This document shows, one piece after another, positions 1 through 10,921 of a stretch of 10,960 bases of DNA. The stretch is from UHGV virus genome UHGV-2137483; one strand, written 5' to 3'. Origin of the DNA: a virus. The notes under the pieces were generated by a model, which saw nothing but the letters and a program-made list of their open reading frames with translations, was not told the DNA's origin and did no database searches. Within the stretch, counting starts at the first letter, position 1; every line of letters starts with the position of its first letter. The position numbers were made by a program, and so were the translations under genes.

Positions 1-1
1 G

Positions 2-589
2 GTCGATGGCCTGAACTTTGCTGCTCAGTATCAGGGTAAAAATGACCGCACTGACGTAACTGAAGCCAATGGTGATGGTTTCGGTTTCTCCACTACTTAT
101 GAGTATGAAGGATTCGGCGTGGGTGCAACCTATGCTAAATCAGATCGCACTGACGGTCAGGTCGCCTATGGTAAGAGCAAATTCAATGCCTCCGGCAAAA
201 ATGCGGAAGTATGGGCTGCAGGCCTGAAATATGATGCGAACAATATCTATCTGGCTACCACATATTCTGAAACTCAGAATATGACCGTTTTTGGTAATAA
301 CCATATTGCAAACAAAGCACAAAACTTTGAAGCAGTAGCACAATATCAGTTTGACTTCGGTCTGCGTCCATCTGTTGCTTACCTTCAGTCAAAAGGTAAA
401 GACCTTGGTGTTCATGGTGACCGAGACTTAGTCAAGTATGTCGATGTCGGTGCTACTTACTACTTTAATAAAAACATGTCCACTTTTGTTGATTACAAAA
501 TCAACTTAATTGACGATAGTAAGTTTACCAAAACAGCTGGTATTGATACCGACGACATCGTCGCTGTAGGTCTGGTTTATCAGTTCTAA
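2..589 (+). CDS. nmpC: outer-membrane porin, OmpC/NmpC family, C-terminal ~195 codons (5' end lies outside the window)
   Basis: Frame is open from position 2 to TAA at 587-589. Translation shows alternating beta-strand pattern and ends in the classic porin C-terminus ...[12 protein letters not shown]. Convergent with Q, as in DLP12-type prophages. Symbol is tentative. Confidence 0.7.
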
Positions 590-3798: not shown

Positions 3799-4496
3799 AC
3801 ACTTGCTCCTTTCAGTCCTAACTTAGCTTTAATTTCTGCGATCTTCGCCAGCGCCTGAACACGATTTAGAGGTCTGCCGCCCATGACAGGAAGTTGTTTT
3901 ACTGGTTCAGGTATCGTCTCACCACGGTTAATTCGCGCTGTCATACAGGTCAGTTCATCGGCAGCCTTGCGTCGTAATTCCGCGTCAGTCAGCGCATTGG
4001 CCCGCATGTTCTGGTACAGGTTGGTAACCAGCCAGTAGTGCGCGTTCGATTTCCACGGATAAGACTCTGCATCCGGATACAGGCCTCGCTTCCGGCAATA
4101 CTCGTAAACCATATCAACCAGCTCGCTGACGTTTGGCAGTCCGGCGATAACGGATGCTTCTTCCCGGCACCATGCAACAAACTGCCCGGGTGATGGCAGA
4201 AATGGTCGATTCTGCCGACGGGCTACGCGCATTCCTGCGTTAACCTGTTCCATTGTGGTGATCCCGTTTTCCCGGAAAGCCAGAACCCACTGGCGGCGGA
4301 TTTCGTTCAGTTCGTTCTGGTCACGGTTAGCCAGACTCGCCGGGAAAGTTGCCAGTAACTGGCTGAACACACCGTTGATGATCTGCGCTACCTGCTGTAC
4401 CTGCGGCTTTTCGTCGTACTGTTCCGGCATGTTGTTGGCGATCCGACGCATCTGCTCACGGTCAAAATTAACCATCTGTGCGGCGATGTTTTTCAT
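3795..4496 (-). CDS. P: replication protein P (DnaB helicase loader)
   Basis: 233-aa translation MKNIAAQMVNFDREQMRRIANNMPEQYDEKPQVQQVAQIINGVF... is near-identical to lambda P as recalled. ATG overlaps the O stop (ATGA). Confidence 0.95.
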   Translation of the reverse strand: MKNIAAQMVNFDREQMRRIANNMPEQYDEKPQVQQVAQIINGVFSQLLATFPASLANRDQNELNEIRRQWVLAFRENGITTMEQVNAGMRVARRQNRPFLPSPGQFVAWCREEASVIAGLPNVSELVDMVYEYCRKRGLYPDAESYPWKSNAHYWLVTNLYQNMRANALTDAELRRKAADELTCMTARINRGETIPEPVKQLPVMGGRPLNRVQALAKIAEIKAKLGLKGASV

Positions 4497-5392
4497 AAAT
4501 CCACCCCGTAAATCCAGTCAGTGTTTGTCAGGTCGAGTTTTGGTTTGCAGGCTGTCACACCTGCCTGTTGCTTGTTACGGTTGATTTCGAGCTGGGTCCA
4601 CTTGTCGCGGAGTTTGGCCGGGCTCAGCACGTTACCGGACCAGAAGTTGTCCTGGCATGCCCAGCGGAACAGTACACACATGTCGCGATGGTTACGTCCG
4701 TCACGTTCACGCATCAGGCGGATATCGTTAGCCCACCCTGCAAAATTCGGTTTTCTGGCTGATGGCGCGATGGTCTTCACCATGTCAAACATCCATTCTG
4801 CGGCGGTCAGGTCTTCTGCTGTCCCCCACTTGCTGCCGCTCTGAATTGCAGCATCCGGTTTCACCACAGAAAGGTCGTTTTCTGGCTGGTCAGAGGATTC
4901 GCCAGAATTCTCTGACGAATAATCTTTTCTTTTTTCTTTTGTAATAGTGTCTTTTGTGTCCCCCTGTTTTGAGGGATAGCAATCCCCCAATTTGAGGGAT
5001 GTTTTATCCCTCGTTTTAGGGGATTTTCCCTCGTTTTGAGGGATACACCATTCTGAGATGTTTTTATTTGGTCCAAACATGCCGCCTTGCTGCTTGATAA
5101 TATTCATTCTGACGAGTTCTAACTTGGCTTCATTGCACCGTTTGACGGGTAACTTTGTAATCTCGCTAAGTTGAGAATCGGTGATTCTGTCCATTGGTTT
5201 ATTCCATCCATAGGTTTTACGCAGAATGGCAAGCAGCACTTTAAACTGTCGCTTGGTCAGATCTGCGCCTGAATAAGCCTCAAGCAGCATATTTGATAGT
5301 CTGGCGTAACCATCATCGAGATCTGCCACATTACGCTCCTGTTTGGCAAAGTTACCTCTGCAGAAGTTGAGTATTTTTGCTGTATTTGTCAT
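4493..5392 (-). CDS. O: replication initiator O
   Basis: 299-aa translation MTNTAKILNFCRGNFAKQERNVADLDDGYARLSNMLLEAYSGADLTKRQFKVLLAILRKTYGWNKP... matches lambda O as recalled. The ori iterons lie inside the gene, as in lambda. Confidence 0.95.
   Translation of the reverse strand: MTNTAKILNFCRGNFAKQERNVADLDDGYARLSNMLLEAYSGADLTKRQFKVLLAILRKTYGWNKPMDRITDSQLSEITKLPVKRCNEAKLELVRMNIIKQQGGMFGPNKNISEWCIPQNEGKSPKTRDKTSLKLGDCYPSKQGDTKDTITKEKRKDYSSENSGESSDQPENDLSVVKPDAAIQSGSKWGTAEDLTAAEWMFDMVKTIAPSARKPNFAGWANDIRLMRERDGRNHRDMCVLFRWACQDNFWSGNVLSPAKLRDKWTQLEINRNKQQAGVTACKPKLDLTNTDWIYGVDL
4915..5043. repeat. ori-lambda-type replication origin: four ~18-bp iterons plus adjacent AT-rich region, inside O
   Basis: Four tandem copies of tCCCyc-N-ttGAGGGA at about 4959-4976, 4982-4999, 5006-5023 and 5027-5043. 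The AT-rich tract gaataatcttttcttttttcttttgtaatagtgtcttttgtg lies at 4915-4958. Confidence 0.85.
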
Positions 5393-5401
5393 AATGACTC
5401 C

Positions 5402-5478
5402 TGTGGATTGATCCAGTAATGACCTCAGAATTCCATCTGGATTTGTTCAGAACGCTCGGTTGCCGCCGGGCGTTTTTT
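5402..5478 (+). ncRNA. oop: oop antisense RNA with promoter pO and terminator
   Basis: Terminator at 5453-5478: cgctcgg / ttgccg / ccgggcg then tttttt, which I recall as the lambda oop terminator. Candidate promoter TTGAGT (5367-5372), 17-bp spacer, CATAAT (5390-5395) gives a ~77-nt RNA antisense to the cII 3' end. The 5' end is an estimate. Confidence 0.65.
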
Positions 5479-5716
5479 ATTGGTGAGTCCATCAAGCGCA
5501 TACTTAAAAGCCCTGCTAACTGATGTCTGATGCCATTCCGAAAGCACACAAGACCGAAGCAATAAATCTCCAGTCCGTTCTGCTTATCTTCGATTCATGA
5601 CAGCCAATCATCTTTGCCAGACCGCGCTGGGTAATAGCTGACAGATTGATAAGTAAATCTGTTTCTGCGCGATCAACGTCACGCTGTGATAGTTTGCTGT
5701 AACTTGTTCTTTCCAT
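5425..5716 (-). pseudogene. cII: cII-like transcriptional activator, reading frame broken by a frameshift
   Basis: From ATG 5716-5714 the frame reads MERTSYSKLSQRDVDRAETDLLINLSAITQRGLAKMIGCHESKISRTDWRFIASVLCAFGMASDIS then stops. The +1 frame continues ...EWHQTSVSRAFKYALDGLTNKKRPAATERSEQIQMEF to TGA at 5427-5425; the last ~20 residues equal the lambda cII C-terminus as recalled. Confidence 0.6.
5694..5707 (+). promoter_or_regulatory. candidate CII-binding repeat of a pRE-like promoter (TTGC-N6-TTGT)
   Basis: ttgc tgtaac ttgt lies antisense within the first codons of cII, the position of pRE in lambda. No convincing -10 element was found. Confidence 0.3.
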
Positions 5717-5801
5717 TTCTTAAGATTTCCAATAGTGAATAGTTAGTTGAAAGGTATGCGTGGAAACGCATATGGCCTTAGTTGGTCAGATATCTTGGAA
5801 C

Positions 5802-5847
5802 TCGCTTTTCAGCGACGTAGGACGAATGTCCGTTGTTACAAAGAGCG
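5802..5847 (-). promoter_or_regulatory. nutR (boxA plus boxB hairpin)
   Basis: Minus strand reads CGCTCTTT (boxA, 5847-5840), 24 nt, then tcgc-tgaaaa-gcga hairpin (boxB, 5815-5802). Almost the same arrangement recurs at nutL. Confidence 0.55.
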
Positions 5848-5857
5848 GATCCGCTTA

Positions 5858-6073
5858 TTAAGCGGCTTTGTGTTCCGGCGGGAACACGTCATCAAGACTG
5901 ACTTTTGCGCCTAACTTGTTTAGGCACGCAACAAGAGCACGGCATGTTTTAAGGTCTGGGAAGCGACGACCAGATTCCCAATGTCCGATAGCTCCCTGTG
6001 TGCATCCAACTGCCTTAGCAAGTGTTGTTTGAGAGATATTCAGTGACTCTCGATATTTTCGTAGGTTGCTCAT
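5858..6073 (-). CDS. cro: Cro-like HTH repressor (71 aa)
   Basis: Translation MSNLRKYRESLNISQTTLAKAVGCTQGAIGHWESGRRFPDLKTCRALVACLNKLGAKVSLDDVFPPEHKAA. ATG at 6073-6071 is preceded by GGAGGG (6082-6077). Divergent from cI across the operator region; the ORF-track 128-aa extension is rejected. Confidence 0.8.
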   Translation of the reverse strand: MSNLRKYRESLNISQTTLAKAVGCTQGAIGHWESGRRFPDLKTCRALVACLNKLGAKVSLDDVFPPEHKAA

Positions 6074-6100
6074 ATGCCCTCCATAGTAAACACGAATAAA

Positions 6101-6150
6101 AAAATACAATATGTACTTTGCGAATACAAGTAAAAATACACATTGTGCAT
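6101..6150. promoter_or_regulatory. OR operator region with candidate PR (minus strand) and PRM
   Basis: Minus-strand PR candidate: -35 TTGTAT (complement of 6124-6129), 17-bp spacer, -10 TATTTT (complement of 6101-6106). Operator-like element tacaatatgtactt at 6105-6118 and a related tacacattgtgcat at 6137-6150. The same element recurs at OL. Confidence 0.5.
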
Positions 6151-6190
6151 GGATGGTTCCAGTACAGAGCGTAATAATAAGGACATGAAA

Positions 6191-6844
6191 ATGAAATGGT
6201 ATGAACTGGCTAGATCCAGAATGAAAGAGCTCGGCATAACTCAAGAGAAGTTAGCCGAAGAGCTAGGTATGACGCAGGGTGGGATTGGACACTGGTTGCG
6301 CGGATCTCGTCATCCATCTCTTAGTGATATTGGTGTGGTGTTTAAATACCTTGGTATTGATAACATATCATTCAACCACGACGGGACATTTTCACCTGTT
6401 GGCGAATACTCATCGGCCCCAGTTAAAAAACAATATGAGTACCCTGTTTTTTCTCATGTTCAGGCTGGGATGTTCTCTCCAGAACTCAGAACCTTTACCA
6501 AAGGCGATACGGAGAGATTGGTAAGCACAACCAAAAAAGCCAGTGACTCTGCATTCTGGCTTGAGGTTGAAGGTAACTCAATGACCGCACCAACAGGTTC
6601 CAAACCCAGCTTTCCTGACGGGATGTTAATTCTGGTTGACCCTGAGCAAGCTGTTGAGCCCGGCGATTTCTGCATAGCCAGACTTGGTGGTGATGAATTT
6701 ACCTTCAAGAAACTGATCAGGGATAGCGGTCAGGTGTTTCTACAGCCACTAAACCCACAATACCCAATGATCCCATGCAATGAGAGTTGTTCCGTTGTGG
6801 GGAAAGTTATCGCCAGCCAATGGCCTGAAGAGACGTTTGGGTGA
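6191..6844 (+). CDS. cI: CI prophage repressor: non-lambda HTH N-terminal domain, lambda-like S24 autocleavage C-terminal domain
   Basis: C-terminal ~130 residues ([26 protein letters not shown]...[90 protein letters not shown]) match lambda cI as recalled. N-terminal HTH ([23 protein letters not shown]) is different. Start is uncertain: ATG 6191 follows AAGGA by 7 nt; alternatives at 6185, 6149 and TTG 6143. Confidence 0.9.
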
Positions 6845-6883: not shown

Positions 6884-7441
6884 TTGGCAAAAATAGATGA
6901 TTATCAGCCAAGCCAAGTAGAAGTTGATAAAGTACTTTATTGTAAAAAAATAGTTAACTTTTCTGGCGTTAAATGGAAACAGAAACCAAGTCGCTCTGAT
7001 ATGTGGCTACAAGCCCATATCATCCCCTTGGATGAGGATTGTATACCTATACAAGGGCTAAAGTTTGAACTGAAATGGAAACCAGATCAGGATTCAGAAC
7101 CTGATGACCCGATTTCTTACCCTAAAATAAATATTATTGCTTTCTATCATAACAAGAGGGTTTTCGCGGTAGATACCTATCACTTTGACAAACACACGAA
7201 TAGTTACAAGGTCGATCATCCGAAGTACCAAGATATCATTTACGGTGCTCACTACCATGTATACTATGAAGAAGCTGGATACTATAGTGATAGAATAGCG
7301 TTTCCAATCGAAGATGACATAAACCCAGATGACCTGGTAGGGTATTGGAATTACTTCTGTAAACATCTGAACATAACTTACTCTGGGAGAATACCTTTAC
7401 CGCTTGAAGATGAGTCGGGGCAAATGGGGTTTGGAATATGA
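6884..7441 (+). CDS. hypothetical protein, gene A of a two-gene cassette in the rexAB slot (185 aa if TTG start)
   Basis: ORF begins 39 nt after the cI stop with no intervening hairpin. First in-frame start is TTG 6884; the first ATG is at codon 40 (7001). No hydrophobic transmembrane stretch is evident. Contains a His/Tyr-rich segment (GAHYHVYYEEAGYY). Visibly AT-rich. No family recognised. Confidence 0.65.
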   Translation: MAKIDDYQPSQVEVDKVLYCKKIVNFSGVKWKQKPSRSDMWLQAHIIPLDEDCIPIQGLKFELKWKPDQDSEPDDPISYPKINIIAFYHNKRVFAVDTYHFDKHTNSYKVDHPKYQDIIYGAHYHVYYEEAGYYSDRIAFPIEDDINPDDLVGYWNYFCKHLNITYSGRIPLPLEDESGQMGFGI

Positions 7442-8190
7442 TGTGCTCAACAGTGATCTCACAACTAGGTTTCGAATGCCATCCAATAGGCAAGACCTTG
7501 AGAATTATCAGTCCATTCACTTACTGTGATGATGGAGAGCATGTCGGTGCCTTTATCCGTGAAGTCAATGGTAGGTATTTAGTTAGTGACAGATGCGATG
7601 CCTTAATGAATATGGAGGCAAGAGGGATCTCGCTTACCAAAAAACGACTTGATGAGATACGACAATTACTGCTTAAAGAAGGCGCAGAACTCAATGCTCG
7701 AGGAGAAATCATTGCTTGGGCAACAGAAAAGGATGTCGGTGCGATTACATCGAACATAATTAGAGCTGGTATACTCGCATCAACTTTGTCGTTAGACTGG
7801 TATCAGCCAGTTCAAGCTGAAAAGTTTGAAAGTATGGTTATTGATTATCTATATCACACAGAGCTTAGAGACGCACTTTCTCTTCGTGAAAACGTATATG
7901 GCTTGAGTGGACATCAAATTACCGTCCCTGTAACAATAAAAACCGACATACCTAAATACGTTTTTACATCAAGCGTGAAACACGGAGGAAGCTGGAATAG
8001 TGCTTACTCATTGCTTGGGAAACTAATTGATCTTAAAGCTTCAAGTGAGGAGTATAACAACAGATTTGTTGTTATAGACAGCGAAGCAATTGGTGATCAA
8101 ATGCAACAACTCTCCTTACTCTTCCATGAATCAAGCCAAGTTCTACCATTCTCCAAAAGAGAGACTTGGGTTAAGAGACTTGCAGCATAA
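7438..8190 (+). CDS. hypothetical protein, gene B of the cassette (250 aa)
   Basis: ATG 7438 overlaps the gene A stop (ATGA, 7438-7441), indicating translational coupling. Long uninterrupted ORF ending TAA 8188-8190, immediately before a strong terminator. No obvious transmembrane segment. No family recognised. Confidence 0.75.
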   Translation: MMCSTVISQLGFECHPIGKTLRIISPFTYCDDGEHVGAFIREVNGRYLVSDRCDALMNMEARGISLTKKRLDEIRQLLLKEGAELNARGEIIAWATEKDVGAITSNIIRAGILASTLSLDWYQPVQAEKFESMVIDYLYHTELRDALSLRENVYGLSGHQITVPVTIKTDIPKYVFTSSVKHGGSWNSAYSLLGKLIDLKASSEEYNNRFVVIDSEAIGDQMQQLSLLFHESSQVLPFSKRETWVKRLAA

Positions 8191-8193
8191 TAC

Positions 8194-8220
8194 AACCCGG
8201 CCTCAGCGCCGGGTTTTCTT
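8194..8220 (+). terminator. intrinsic terminator ending the cI-cassette transcript (tImm-like)
   Basis: aacccggc (8194-8201) / loop ctcagc / gccgggtt (8208-8215), followed by a T-rich tail ttttcttt. Confidence 0.65.
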
Positions 8221-8408
8221 TGCCTCACGTTCGCCCACCTAAAAACACATAACCAATTATATTTATTGAAAAATAAATAGATGCAACCCACTAAACCACG
8301 CAATTCTGATCTCTCCTTACATCGCCGAGGCAATACATCCACGCTAAAAAACAACACTATTAAATACAAAGCGTTATAAAAAACCACGCCAACTTACAAC
8401 AAATTGTA

Positions 8409-8437
8409 TTGATCTTGTAAAGTACATATCGTACTAT
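8409..8437 (+). promoter_or_regulatory. pL candidate with OL operator
   Basis: -35 TTGATC (8409-8414), 17-bp spacer, -10 TACTAT (8432-8437). Palindromic operator AGTACatatcGTACT at 8421-8435 matches the OR element with the same spacing to the -35. Confidence 0.5.
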
Positions 8438-8482
8438 TTAACCGTCAGCAGGACGCTGGAAGCCAAATGGAACAGACTGGCA

Positions 8483-8528
8483 GGCTCTTTAAACAACGTC
8501 GACTCTCGACTACGTGGCTGAAAAGCCA
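8483..8528 (+). promoter_or_regulatory. nutL (boxA plus boxB hairpin)
   Basis: GGCTCTTT (8483-8490), 24 nt, then tggc-tgaaaa-gcca hairpin (8515-8528). Same architecture and spacer landmarks (AACAACG, CTACG) as nutR. Confidence 0.55.
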
Positions 8529-8626
8529 GATCACCCAACCACATAAGCTGTGGGATGCAATGCCGAAGCAACCGTCTCAGGAGGAGCTTCGAGATTGCAT
8601 CGCCAAAGTTTATTCGGGAGGAATCC

Positions 8627-8915: not shown

Positions 8916-9532
8916 TTACTTGTTTTTGCCATGCTTATCCTGAGCGATAAGTTCATCCATAAGGCTGTCTGCCTTCCCGGCAAACCTAATGTAGCACTCA
9001 TGTCTATAGCTTTCAGGGATAACGAAACGGTCGGTATCAGGATATCCAACAGCAGGAGGCCTTCGAACGAGGAGTCCTTTTTTGAGCAATGAAATTGATT
9101 CATGAGNNNNNNNNNNNNNNNNNNNNNNNNNNATTCATGAGCGCCCTTTTCCGTTTGTAGCTGGTTATTAGCGGCTACAGCGAATGCCAAATACGCTCTT
9201 TCTCCAAGAGTTAACGAATCAAACAAATCTTGCACATATTTTTCTTCTTTAGATTTGCGCTTCTGAGCAGCGAATACCTCAATTCTTTCAGTCACAGCGT
9301 GATAAGCGGAATTAACAACGCCGTTAAGCACATAGCTAACGCAAAACAACAGGATGTAATACATCCAGTAATGAGGAAGGATTTCTGGACTATGCAGGTT
9401 TATCCATTCTTTTACGCTTACCGGCATAACAATAATCAATATGATCAGGATGATTAGCATATGAATCAACTGTTTAAGTGTCATTCCTTGCAGGAAAAAA
9501 TGCATTAGTTCCTGCCACCATGAGTTGTTCAT
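8916..9532 (-). CDS. sieB: superinfection exclusion protein SieB-like membrane protein, interrupted by an assembly gap
   Basis: N-terminal part MNNSWWQELMHFFLQGMTLKQLIHMLIILIILIIVMPVSV... is hydrophobic. The C-terminal part is in a different frame from the ORF-track call and reads ...HESISLLKKGLLVRRPPAVGYPDTDRFVIPESYRHECYIRFAGKADSLMDELIAQDKHGKNK to TAA 8918-8916. Convergent with N, as lambda sieB. Confidence 0.65.
9107..9132. other. assembly gap (26 N), probably artefactual
   Basis: Run of N. The 9 bases attcatgag occur on both flanks (9098-9106 and 9133-9141). Confidence 0.95.
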
Positions 9533-9675: not shown

Positions 9676-9762
9676 ATGGAAGAAGAATTTGAAGAGTTCG
9701 AAGAGCATCCTCAAGATGTGATGGAACAATACCAGGACTATCCGTATGACTACGACTATTGA
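9676..9762 (+). CDS. small acidic ORF (28 aa) at the position of lambda orf28
   Basis: ATG 9676 preceded by AAGGTGA. Translation MEEEFEEFEEHPQDVMEQYQDYPYDYDY. Same length and position (overlapping the ral start) as lambda orf28 as recalled; sequence identity not verified. Confidence 0.45.
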   Translation: MEEEFEEFEEHPQDVMEQYQDYPYDYDY

Positions 9763-9946
9763 TACAAATCAATGGTGTGGACAATTCAAACGATGCAATG
9801 GATGCAAGCTGCAATCGGAATGCATGGTTAAGCCTGAAGAAATGTTTCCTGTAATGGAAGATGGGAAATATGTCGATAAATGGGCAATACGAACGACGGC
9901 AATGATTGCCAGAGAACTTGGTAAACAGAACAACAAAGCTGCCTGA
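9746..9946 (+). CDS. ral: restriction alleviation protein Ral
   Basis: 66-aa translation MTTTIDTNQWCGQFKRCNGCKLQSECMVKPEEMFPVMEDGKYVDKWAIRTTAMIARELGKQNNKAA matches lambda Ral as recalled. Confidence 0.85.
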   Translation: MTTTIDTNQWCGQFKRCNGCKLQSECMVKPEEMFPVMEDGKYVDKWAIRTTAMIARELGKQNNKAA

Positions 9947-10082
9947 TAGTGGCCTTTATTTTTGGCATAAATAACAGAATAAACACTGCACTGTGTATTC
10001 ATTCCAACGAGTGAATACACGGAGCAATGTCGCTCGTAACTAAACAGGAGCCGACTTGTTCTGATTATTGGAAATCTTCTTT

Positions 10083-10108
10083 GCCCTCCAGTGTGAGGGC
10101 GATTTTTT
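10083..10108 (+). terminator. intrinsic terminator between ral and ea10
   Basis: gccctc (10083-10088) / loop cagtgt / gagggc (10095-10100), then gatttttt. Confidence 0.55.
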
Positions 10109-10128
10109 ATCTATGAGGATATGAATAG

Positions 10129-10497
10129 ATGTCAAACATCAAAAAATACATCATTGATTACGACTGGAAAGCATCAATAGAAATTGAAATTGACCATGAC
10201 GTAATGACAGAGGAAAAACTTCACCAGATTAATAATTTCTGGTCAGACTCTGAATACCGACTCAATAAACACGGCTCTGTATTAAATGCTGTATTAATCA
10301 TGCTGGCGCAACATGCTCTGCTTATAGCAATTTCAAGCGACTTAAATGCATATGGTGTTGTGTGTGAGTTCGACTGGAATGATGGAAATGGTCAGGAAGG
10401 ATGGCCTCCAATGGATGGTAGTGAAGGAATAAGAATTACCGATATCGATACATCAGGAATATTTGATTCAGATGATATGACTATCAAGGCCGCCTGA
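10129..10497 (+). CDS. ea10: early protein at the position and length of lambda Ea10 (122 aa, acidic C-terminus)
   Basis: ATG 10129 preceded by GAGGA. 369-nt ORF between ral and cIII, the size and place of lambda ea10 as recalled. Sequence identity to Ea10 not verified. Confidence 0.55.
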   Translation: MSNIKKYIIDYDWKASIEIEIDHDVMTEEKLHQINNFWSDSEYRLNKHGSVLNAVLIMLAQHALLIAISSDLNAYGVVCEFDWNDGNGQEGWPPMDGSEGIRITDIDTSGIFDSDDMTIKAA

Positions 10498-10569
10498 GCG
10501 CGGCGTTACCGCATACCAATTACGCTTCACTCGAGGCGTTTTTCGTTATGTATAAATAAGGAGCACACC

Positions 10570-10734
10570 ATGCAATATGCCATTGCAGGGTGGCCTGTTG
10601 CTGGCTGCCCTTCCGAATCTTTACTTGAACGAATCACCCGTAAATTACGTGACGGATGGAAACGCCTTATCGACATACTTAATCAGCCAGGAGTCCCAAA
10701 AAATGGATCAAACAATTATGGCTATCCAGACTAA
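10570..10734 (+). CDS. cIII: CIII (FtsH inhibitor, protects CII)
   Basis: Below the ORF-track cutoff. ATG 10570 preceded by AAGGAG. Translation [54 protein letters not shown] matches lambda CIII as recalled. Confidence 0.9.
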   Translation: MQYAIAGWPVAGCPSESLLERITRKLRDGWKRLIDILNQPGVPKNGSNNYGYPD

Positions 10735-10846
10735 ATTCACTATCGCCACTTTTATTGGCGATGAAAAGATGTTTCGTGAGGCCGTCGACGCTTATAAAAA
10801 ATGGATATTAATACTGAAACTGAGATCAAGCAAAAGCATTCACTAA
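10703..10846 (+). CDS. kil: Kil (host cell-division inhibitor)
   Basis: 47-aa translation [47 protein letters not shown] matches lambda Kil as recalled. Overlaps the cIII 3' end in another frame, as in lambda. Confidence 0.85.
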
Positions 10847-10921
10847 CCCCCTTTCCTGTTTTCCTAATCAGCCTGGCATTTCGCGGGCGATATTTTCACA
10901 GCCATTTTCAGGAGTTCAGCC

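Follow-up and report, generated by a model that had tools for sequence, protein, structure and literature searches.

A five-nucleotide deletion in the cII gene of a lambdoid prophage: probable private pseudogenising mutation or assembly error

The cII gene of the virus genome UHGV-2137483 was studied in a stretch of 10,960 nucleotides, hereafter called the window. As written, the gene lacks five nucleotides that are present in intact alleles otherwise identical to it. The deletion creates a stop codon, the region of the Phage_CII profile that lies behind this stop is lost from the protein, and the deleted form is absent from every collection that was searched. We consider it probable that this is a private loss-of-function deletion, which removed the tetramerisation helix of CII and is neutral in an established lysogen. 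In this preferred reading we infer both that the organism itself has the deletion, and not its assembly alone, and that function is lost. Whether a private pseudogenising deletion or an assembly error, it is an event of a known kind in a well understood gene.

Two reading frames of cII

The genes cI, cro, cII, O and P follow one another in the window in this order, as read from the open reading frames and from the annotation of relatives; the relatives lending their annotation are identical to the window except for the five-nucleotide gap, a run of undetermined bases (the N-run described below) and at most one SNP. The features needed for the argument are the following.

5516..5716, minus strand: truncated cII open reading frame, 66 codons and a TAG at 5518-5516, the helix-turn-helix part of CII
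5519..5520, minus strand: deletion joint, at which TCCGA or CCGAT, codons Pro67-Ile68 of the intact allele, is gone (alignments with PhiR57_1, CFT073, ABU 83972, P27, HK106 and BP-4795)
5425..5515, minus strand: out-of-frame 3' remnant of cII, with intact codons 69-98 and TGA, containing the alpha4-equivalent segment and the lambda-identical tail
6149..6844, plus strand: cI repressor gene, intact by its translation, 231 amino acids, Ala121Thr variant; the repressor maintains lysogeny without CII

The open reading frame list and the translations give a 66-amino-acid, ATG-started product at 5716..5516 on the minus strand (MERTSY...MASDIS, in full MERTSYSKLSQRDVDRAETDLLINLSAITQRGLAKMIGCHESKISRTDWRFIASVLCAFGMASDIS), which stops at TAG. 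A second open reading frame of cII, at 5562..5425 on the same strand, lies in the +1 frame and is translated to its end as ...SRAFKYALDGLTNKKRPAATERSEQIQMEF; its C-terminal end, ...LTNKKRPAATERSEQIQMEF, is identical to that of lambda CII. From the ATG to the TGA, the gene measures 292 nt in the window, which is 3n+1. The preliminary description had recognised here one cII gene spread over two frames, and this was confirmed; its proposal of a truncated CII which keeps the helix-turn-helix and lacks the C-terminal third also holds for the sequence as written, both from the open reading frame and from the coverage of the Pfam profile.

Compared with Phage_CII (PF05269, score cut-off 21.3 bits), the 66-amino-acid product covers profile positions 1-65 of 91 (E=5.6e-22, 78.2 bits) and the +1-frame remnant at 5425..5562 covers positions 64-91 (29.9 bits), while an intact relative covers positions 1-91 with 116.4 bits. 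A complete gene of this family would have a single unbroken open reading frame over the full domain, including the C-terminal oligomerisation helix; in the window there is a stop at profile position 65 of 91 and the rest is in the +1 frame. The lambda CII structures PDB 1xwr, 1zpq and 8igr match the window CII at E=9e-10. The locus belongs to the Phage_CII family, either as a pseudogene of cII or as a truncated allele.

Position and nature of the lesion

Alignment with intact alleles places the lesion between window positions 5520 and 5519, where TCCGA (equivalently CCGAT) is missing. By this loss AGT is fused to TAG, so that the stop codon directly after Ser66 is made by the deletion itself. 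The net effect is the loss of codons Pro67-Ile68 minus one base, and a shift to the +1 frame. Intact cII, of 98 codons, reads ...MASDISPISRAFKYALDGLTNKK...; where the intact allele reads ...GACATCAGTCCGATTAGCAGG..., the window reads ...GACATCAGTTAGCAGG..., which is the sole difference in the alignment with PhiR57_1 and the CFT073 prophage. We name the joint in its deleted form CAGTTAGC; the stretch spanning it is ...CATCAGTTAGCAGG... when deleted and ...CATCAGTCCGATTAGCAGG... when intact. A 401-nt query across cII, used on the INPHARED phages and on 5,426 complete E. coli genomes, gave top matches that are all 98.8% identical, the 401 bases of the query being spread over 406 of the subject.

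Intact alleles of 98 amino acids that are otherwise identical to that of the window are found in phage PhiR57_1 and in the prophages of CFT073, ABU 83972, ATCC 25922 and Nissle 1917. Their product, WP_000442609.1 (98 aa), which is also carried by phages ev207 and ev017, is encoded with 100% nucleotide identity to the window over the gene and its flanks bar the 5 nt, and in the same cro-cII-O-P-ren synteny; in contrast to it, the window has no TCCGA at codons 67-68 and stops after residue 66.

The lesion had at first been placed elsewhere, in 5520-5570, between a conserved DW in frame 1 and an EW in frame 2. The count of 31 nt between these two pairs is correct (GAC-TGG at 5575-5570, GAA-TGG at 5538-5533), but the frame does not change between them: the stretch is 100% identical to intact alleles and is read in frame 1 as RFIASVLCAFGMASDIS. 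The apparent 'SEW' or 'EW' is an out-of-frame coincidence, namely frame 2 of TTC-GGA-ATG-GCA (F-G-M-A), and is unrelated to E59-W60 of lambda. Short motif matches of this kind in another frame can misplace a frameshift, and the comparison with intact cII alleles of related prophages, which the preliminary description had recommended, returned a single 5-nt gap between 5520 and 5519 and none in 5520-5570. The suggested homopolymer error or single-base slip does not agree with the alignments either, which show a 5-nt deletion in complex sequence with no homopolymer at the site. Slippage between direct repeats was rejected as the cause, since no direct repeats of 6 nt or more exist around the site; the microhomology there amounts to 1 nt only.

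Rarity of the deleted form

Along all 10,960 nt, the window differs from ABU 83972 by the 5-nt gap, one SNP (6509, cI Ala121Thr) and a 26-N run. Four independent assemblies (GCA_012876555.1 and, from Logan, ERR6121409, SRR22878066 and SRR35963618) present 0 mismatches to the window over 5.2-8.7 kb, including the Thr121 SNP; their cII is intact and they differ from the window by the 5-nt gap and the N-run only.

The deleted joint was absent from the 5,426 complete E. coli genomes and from the INPHARED phages, both searched by megablast with the 401-nt query and a 70-nt query, the best match always carrying the 5-nt gap. With the 70-nt joint query, this part of cII was found in 1,172 of the complete genomes, again with the gap in every full-length match. 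Exact patterns of 41, 30 and 20 nt across the joint returned nothing relevant in GTDB representative genomes, JGI metagenomes and IMG/VR, the four matches obtained all being due to chance and lying in unrelated sequence; at least 120 contigs of IMG/VR have the intact joint. At the protein level, an exact look-up of the frame-B products that are diagnostic of the deletion (40 aa with a V-start, 40 aa with an M-start, and a 45-aa TTG-started open reading frame) found none on record. The same look-up with the 66-aa product gave 20 contigs, but such a search is biased, as it can return only contigs ending in this codon, and in all ten of the places shown the gene runs off the end of its contig and meets no stop; these contigs were consequently rejected as further carriers. 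The deletion is a singleton, in a sequence that apart from it does not differ from intact relatives.

Real mutation or assembly error

Because no second sequence carries it, a one-off deletion also fits an assembly error. According to this explanation, cII is intact in the organism, with 98 codons, and contig joining, gap closing or consensus calling of a draft removed the 5 nt; the likely cause would be reads of two co-resident lambdoid prophages diverging at a CCG/CCA site inside the missing pentamer. We rate such an error as possible and stop short of favouring it, and it stays a live alternative because the record is gapped. The earlier suspicion of a draft assembly was well founded in this respect, although not in its assumption of a homopolymer error: the window contains 26 N at 9107-9132, inside sieB, flanked on both sides by ATTCATGAG (9098-9141), a sequence that relatives have in single copy and with no gap. 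The pattern suggests that a false gap was placed between two overlapping contigs, or else that a stretch was masked; the duplication of a 9-nt flank that is single-copy in relatives argues for the former, in which case the N-run is spurious and the window a gapped scaffold of contigs that overlap by 9 nt. It was also considered whether the N-run hides the IS3 of ATCC 25922, and this was rejected since that element lies between sieB and ral and not at the gap.

Other observations also fit an error. The deleted joint is in no other sequence searched and its intact counterpart is abundant (the IMG/VR contigs and complete genomes counted above), and apart from the gap the window agrees fully with intact relatives over up to 8.7 kb. 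Furthermore, the pentamer includes a polymorphic base where independent short-read assemblies repeatedly break. Among cII alleles with the same upstream sequence (IMG/VR loci L138-L147), the Pro67 codon is either CCG or CCA, a synonymous polymorphism, and nine of the ten contigs shown from the 66-aa look-up (L004-L012), which are independent Logan/ENA short-read assemblies, end at ...CAGTCC, that is ...CATCAGTCC. Since the base after ...CATCAGTCC is this G/A polymorphism, the site is a recurrent branch point of the assembly graph when two lambdoid prophages coexist, and gap-closing and consensus errors tend to fall at graph branch sites such as CCG/CCA.

Against an error speaks the character of the lesion, as a clean 5-nt loss in mid-contig and in non-repetitive sequence is unusual for any common platform, and no other indel is present in 10.9 kb, homopolymers included (the A6 run of cII among them). 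Its overlap with a polymorphic site is also not very improbable by chance, because the alleles differ at many sites across the 297-nt gene. Finally, one de Bruijn contig, from run ERR912072 and without a difference from the window, stops at the very base that a real deletion would predict, 2 nt before the others. This Logan contig (L013, ERR912072_366765) has 1,119 nt and corresponds exactly to window 5519-6637, including the Thr121 SNP; it ends ...CAGT, up to which the deleted and intact versions agree. Its end is that of the graph branch expected if deleted reads coexist with an intact allele, which is suggestive only; it may be a coverage dead-end, and the contig may come from the same strain or read set as the window.

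The SNP shared by the two is a G-to-A change at window 6509, which turns GDAERL into GDTERL in CI, and G is found at this position in all 33 other loci with this stretch, L013 excepted. Its use as a marker of the window and L013 as one strain was weakened by a look-up of the protein: the exact Thr121 CI occurs on at least 23 contigs elsewhere and adjoins an intact cII in the four that were compared.

For annotation, the consequence of these two explanations is that the locus should be labelled as a cII pseudogene (5-bp deletion frameshift) or flagged for a possible assembly error.

Predicted effect on CII and on lysogeny

Lambda CII binds TTGC-N6-TTGC repeats as a tetramer and in this form activates the promoters PRE, PI and PaQ; its helix alpha4 builds the four-helix bundle of the tetramer and its C-terminal tail targets the protein to FtsH proteolysis. 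The window-type allele could be aligned to lambda CII over residues 13-98, the last 20 being identical. Ser66 of the window product aligns to about Asp65 of lambda CII (PDB 1xwr), and the fragment is without the segment equivalent to lambda residues 66-97 (alignment to PDB 1xwr, 1zpq and 8igr); the helix boundaries given for the window allele were mapped by sequence alignment to PDB 1xwr.

If the deletion is real, as we prefer, a private 5-bp deletion in cII would have arisen in a lambdoid prophage of a phylogroup-B2-type E. coli of the CFT073/ABU 83972/ATCC 25922/Nissle family. Its product would be a 66-residue fragment keeping the helix-turn-helix, without the alpha4 segment and without the tail that carries the FtsH signal. 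Since CII acts as a tetramer and the alpha4 segment is missing, this fragment should be inactive, making the allele a cII-null one by analogy with lambda CII, from which the loss of function of the window allele is deduced. With the alpha4-equivalent segment and the tail gone, both the tetrameric activator activity and the FtsH-dependent instability are predicted to be lost. Polarity is unlikely to play a role for O and P, since the start of O itself is retained, 33 nt behind the original stop of cII.

The literature on C-terminally shortened lambda CII offers an experimental counterpart. Taken together, the work of Datta, Roy and Parrack in 2005 (J Mol Biol), Parua et al. in 2010 (J Gen Virol) and Kobiler et al. 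in 2002 (PNAS), all cited in PMC3053222, reportedly found the alpha4 and C-terminal residues to be crucial to the structure of the tetramer, to stability and to the lysogenic choice. The window fragment is without these residues and without the tail signalling rapid proteolysis; the proteins studied there were engineered or proteolytic fragments of lambda CII. No more than the last 17 residues of lambda CII can be spared without loss of activity, and the known missense cII- mutations map to the left of the overlap with the oop transcript (PMC3349717). The lesion of the window removes 32 residues and also lies left of the oop overlap.

A candidate target of the lost activator is present in the window.

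5694..5707, plus strand (the cI strand): putative CII box TTGC-N6-TTGT, TTGCTGTAACTTGT, inside the first cII codons, the single match in the window

In lambda, PRE has CII-type repeats TTGC-N6-TTGC, overlaps the start of cII and points to cI. The match in the window would thus occupy the position of the lambda PRE -35 region and presumably be the target of the lost activator; the match count alone is not above chance, and its meaning comes from the homologous position.

CII is needed to establish lysogeny and not to maintain it (PMC9986795; PMC3053222). The intact cI would keep the resident prophage in place, and because CII is needed only for the establishment of lysogeny, the lesion would be selectively neutral in the lysogen, a case of ordinary prophage decay. 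After induction, the progeny phage would be expected to form clear plaques and to lysogenise poorly. By analogy, this is the behaviour of the lambda cII- clear-plaque mutants, in which the CII activator of PRE, PI and PaQ is lost and maintenance by cI should be normal. The window differs from these mutants in that its lesion affects a non-lambda allele, like those of P27, HK106 and PhiR57_1, within a prophage resident in a natural isolate, and in that it is a 5-bp frameshift deletion instead of a point mutation. If the deletion is real, such a prophage would be stably kept with progeny unable to re-establish lysogeny efficiently, which is a small step in prophage domestication.

The general course of decay in lambdoid prophages of E. 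coli offers a second likeness, with a one-off lesion inactivating a gene that the lysogen keeps silent, and sister copies with other lesions. The window adds nothing distinctive to it and would be a textbook instance if its deletion is real. In the CFT073 copy, cI is split into a helix-turn-helix piece and an N-terminally truncated LexA-like pseudogene (locus 3930-4631) and an IS3 is inserted between ren and ninB (locus 7370-8583); the ATCC 25922 copy carries a frameshifted IS3 between sieB and ral (locus 9709-10881). Because the sister copies carry these other, independent lesions, prophage decay is evidently ongoing, and this favours a real mutation in the window.

A real deletion with a selective effect seems very unlikely to us. 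The stable, helix-turn-helix-only fragment of 66 residues, deprived of its FtsH-targeting tail and unable to form tetramers, might then be dominant-negative at CII boxes or in mixed oligomers, or else the loss of cII would be favoured. A dominant-negative fragment would, after induction or superinfection, bias the prophage or incoming phages of the same CII type to lysis; selection for the loss of cII could act by removing CII toxicity in abortive induction.

The mosaic end of the gene and the oop unit

Returning to the neutral deletion as the preferred reading, it does not coincide with the mosaic boundary of the gene, at which the preliminary description had located the break.

5425..5487, minus strand: lambda-identical DNA part of cII, encoding LTNKKRPAATERSEQIQMEF and the stop, the last 63 nt of the gene
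5367..5485, plus strand: oop-like antisense unit opposite the 3' end of cII (promoter and terminator scan, near-identity to lambda), left untouched by the deletion

In a three-way DNA alignment, the near-identity to lambda begins at CTCACCAATAAAAAACG, window 5487, and extends through the intergenic region into O. The mosaic boundary is found 32 nt downstream of the deletion in the direction of the gene, so that the frame is not broken exactly where non-lambda sequence switches to lambda-like sequence. Four non-lambda alleles (PhiR57_1, P27, HK106 and BP-4795) all read CAGTCCGATTAG in frame, and the same mosaic allele, with a non-lambda N-terminus and a lambda-identical C-terminus, is found in frame and with 98 codons in more than 1,000 genomes and in many phages. 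Hence the mosaic is an old structure, widespread and in frame, and not the cause of the break in cII.

A recombination joint had nevertheless been offered as the source of the break, the frameshift being the scar of the event that joined a non-lambda 5' part of cII to a lambda-like 3' part. The allele is indeed a mosaic, essentially lambda-identical in its last 63 nt and on into O and diverged in the rest of the gene. However, active phages and those many genomes have the mosaic allele in frame, its boundary is 32 nt away from the lesion, and both sides of the deletion belong to one and the same non-lambda allele. By these alignments a recombination scar is already refuted, and we give it hardly any credence.

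The lambda-like end of the gene may be better understood from the strand opposite. In lambda, OOP is a self-terminating 77-nt RNA overlapping the last 55 nt of cII (PMC3349717). The window presents a pO-like promoter at 5367-5395 on the plus strand (TTGAGT-17-CATAAT with an extended TG) and, at 5449-5476 on the same strand, a strong intrinsic terminator with a 12-bp stem followed by a T-run; a transcript of about 77 nt and an overlap of 55 nt with cII are predicted from them, as in lambda. No Rfam family matched at this unit. The deletion is situated about 40 nt outside the oop overlap with cII. The lambda-identical block of cII starts 8 nt past the oop 3' end deduced by transfer of the 55-nt overlap (5479), and for this reason it is probably the oop-O module, and not the protein, whose conservation or exchange gave CII its lambda-like C-terminus. 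The lambda-identical tail of cII should accordingly be read with caution, as the trace of a conserved antisense unit and not of a fresh joint.

Programmed +1 recoding, in which ribosomes would shift at AGT-TAG, full-length CII would be made and the broken frame would be regulatory, deserves next to no weight: it formally resembles prfB, with a +1 downstream frame and a shift that would take place at a stop codon, but the two-frame arrangement exists in this one sequence only, all relatives having a plain in-frame gene as one open reading frame and leaving no conservation to base a recoding signal on, no slippery motif is present, and the shifted product would lack Pro67-Ile68. The locus should be read neither as a recombination scar nor as a new regulatory arrangement.

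Other features of the window

Scanned with Rfam, the window contains the thermoregulator of the cIII mRNA, Lambda_thermo (RF01804), at 10557-10615 on the plus strand, with 88.5 bits against a gathering score of 50; it is the only match at the gathering threshold over the window. Two further features were transferred from the annotation of a relative (L003). At the left end (window 1-589), an ompC-like porin gene lies directly beside the quuD antiterminator gene. At about 1740-1830 there is a remnant of a DUF1364 gene with its N-terminus missing, and as this remnant is common to all relatives, the late-region junction was rearranged before the cII lesion.
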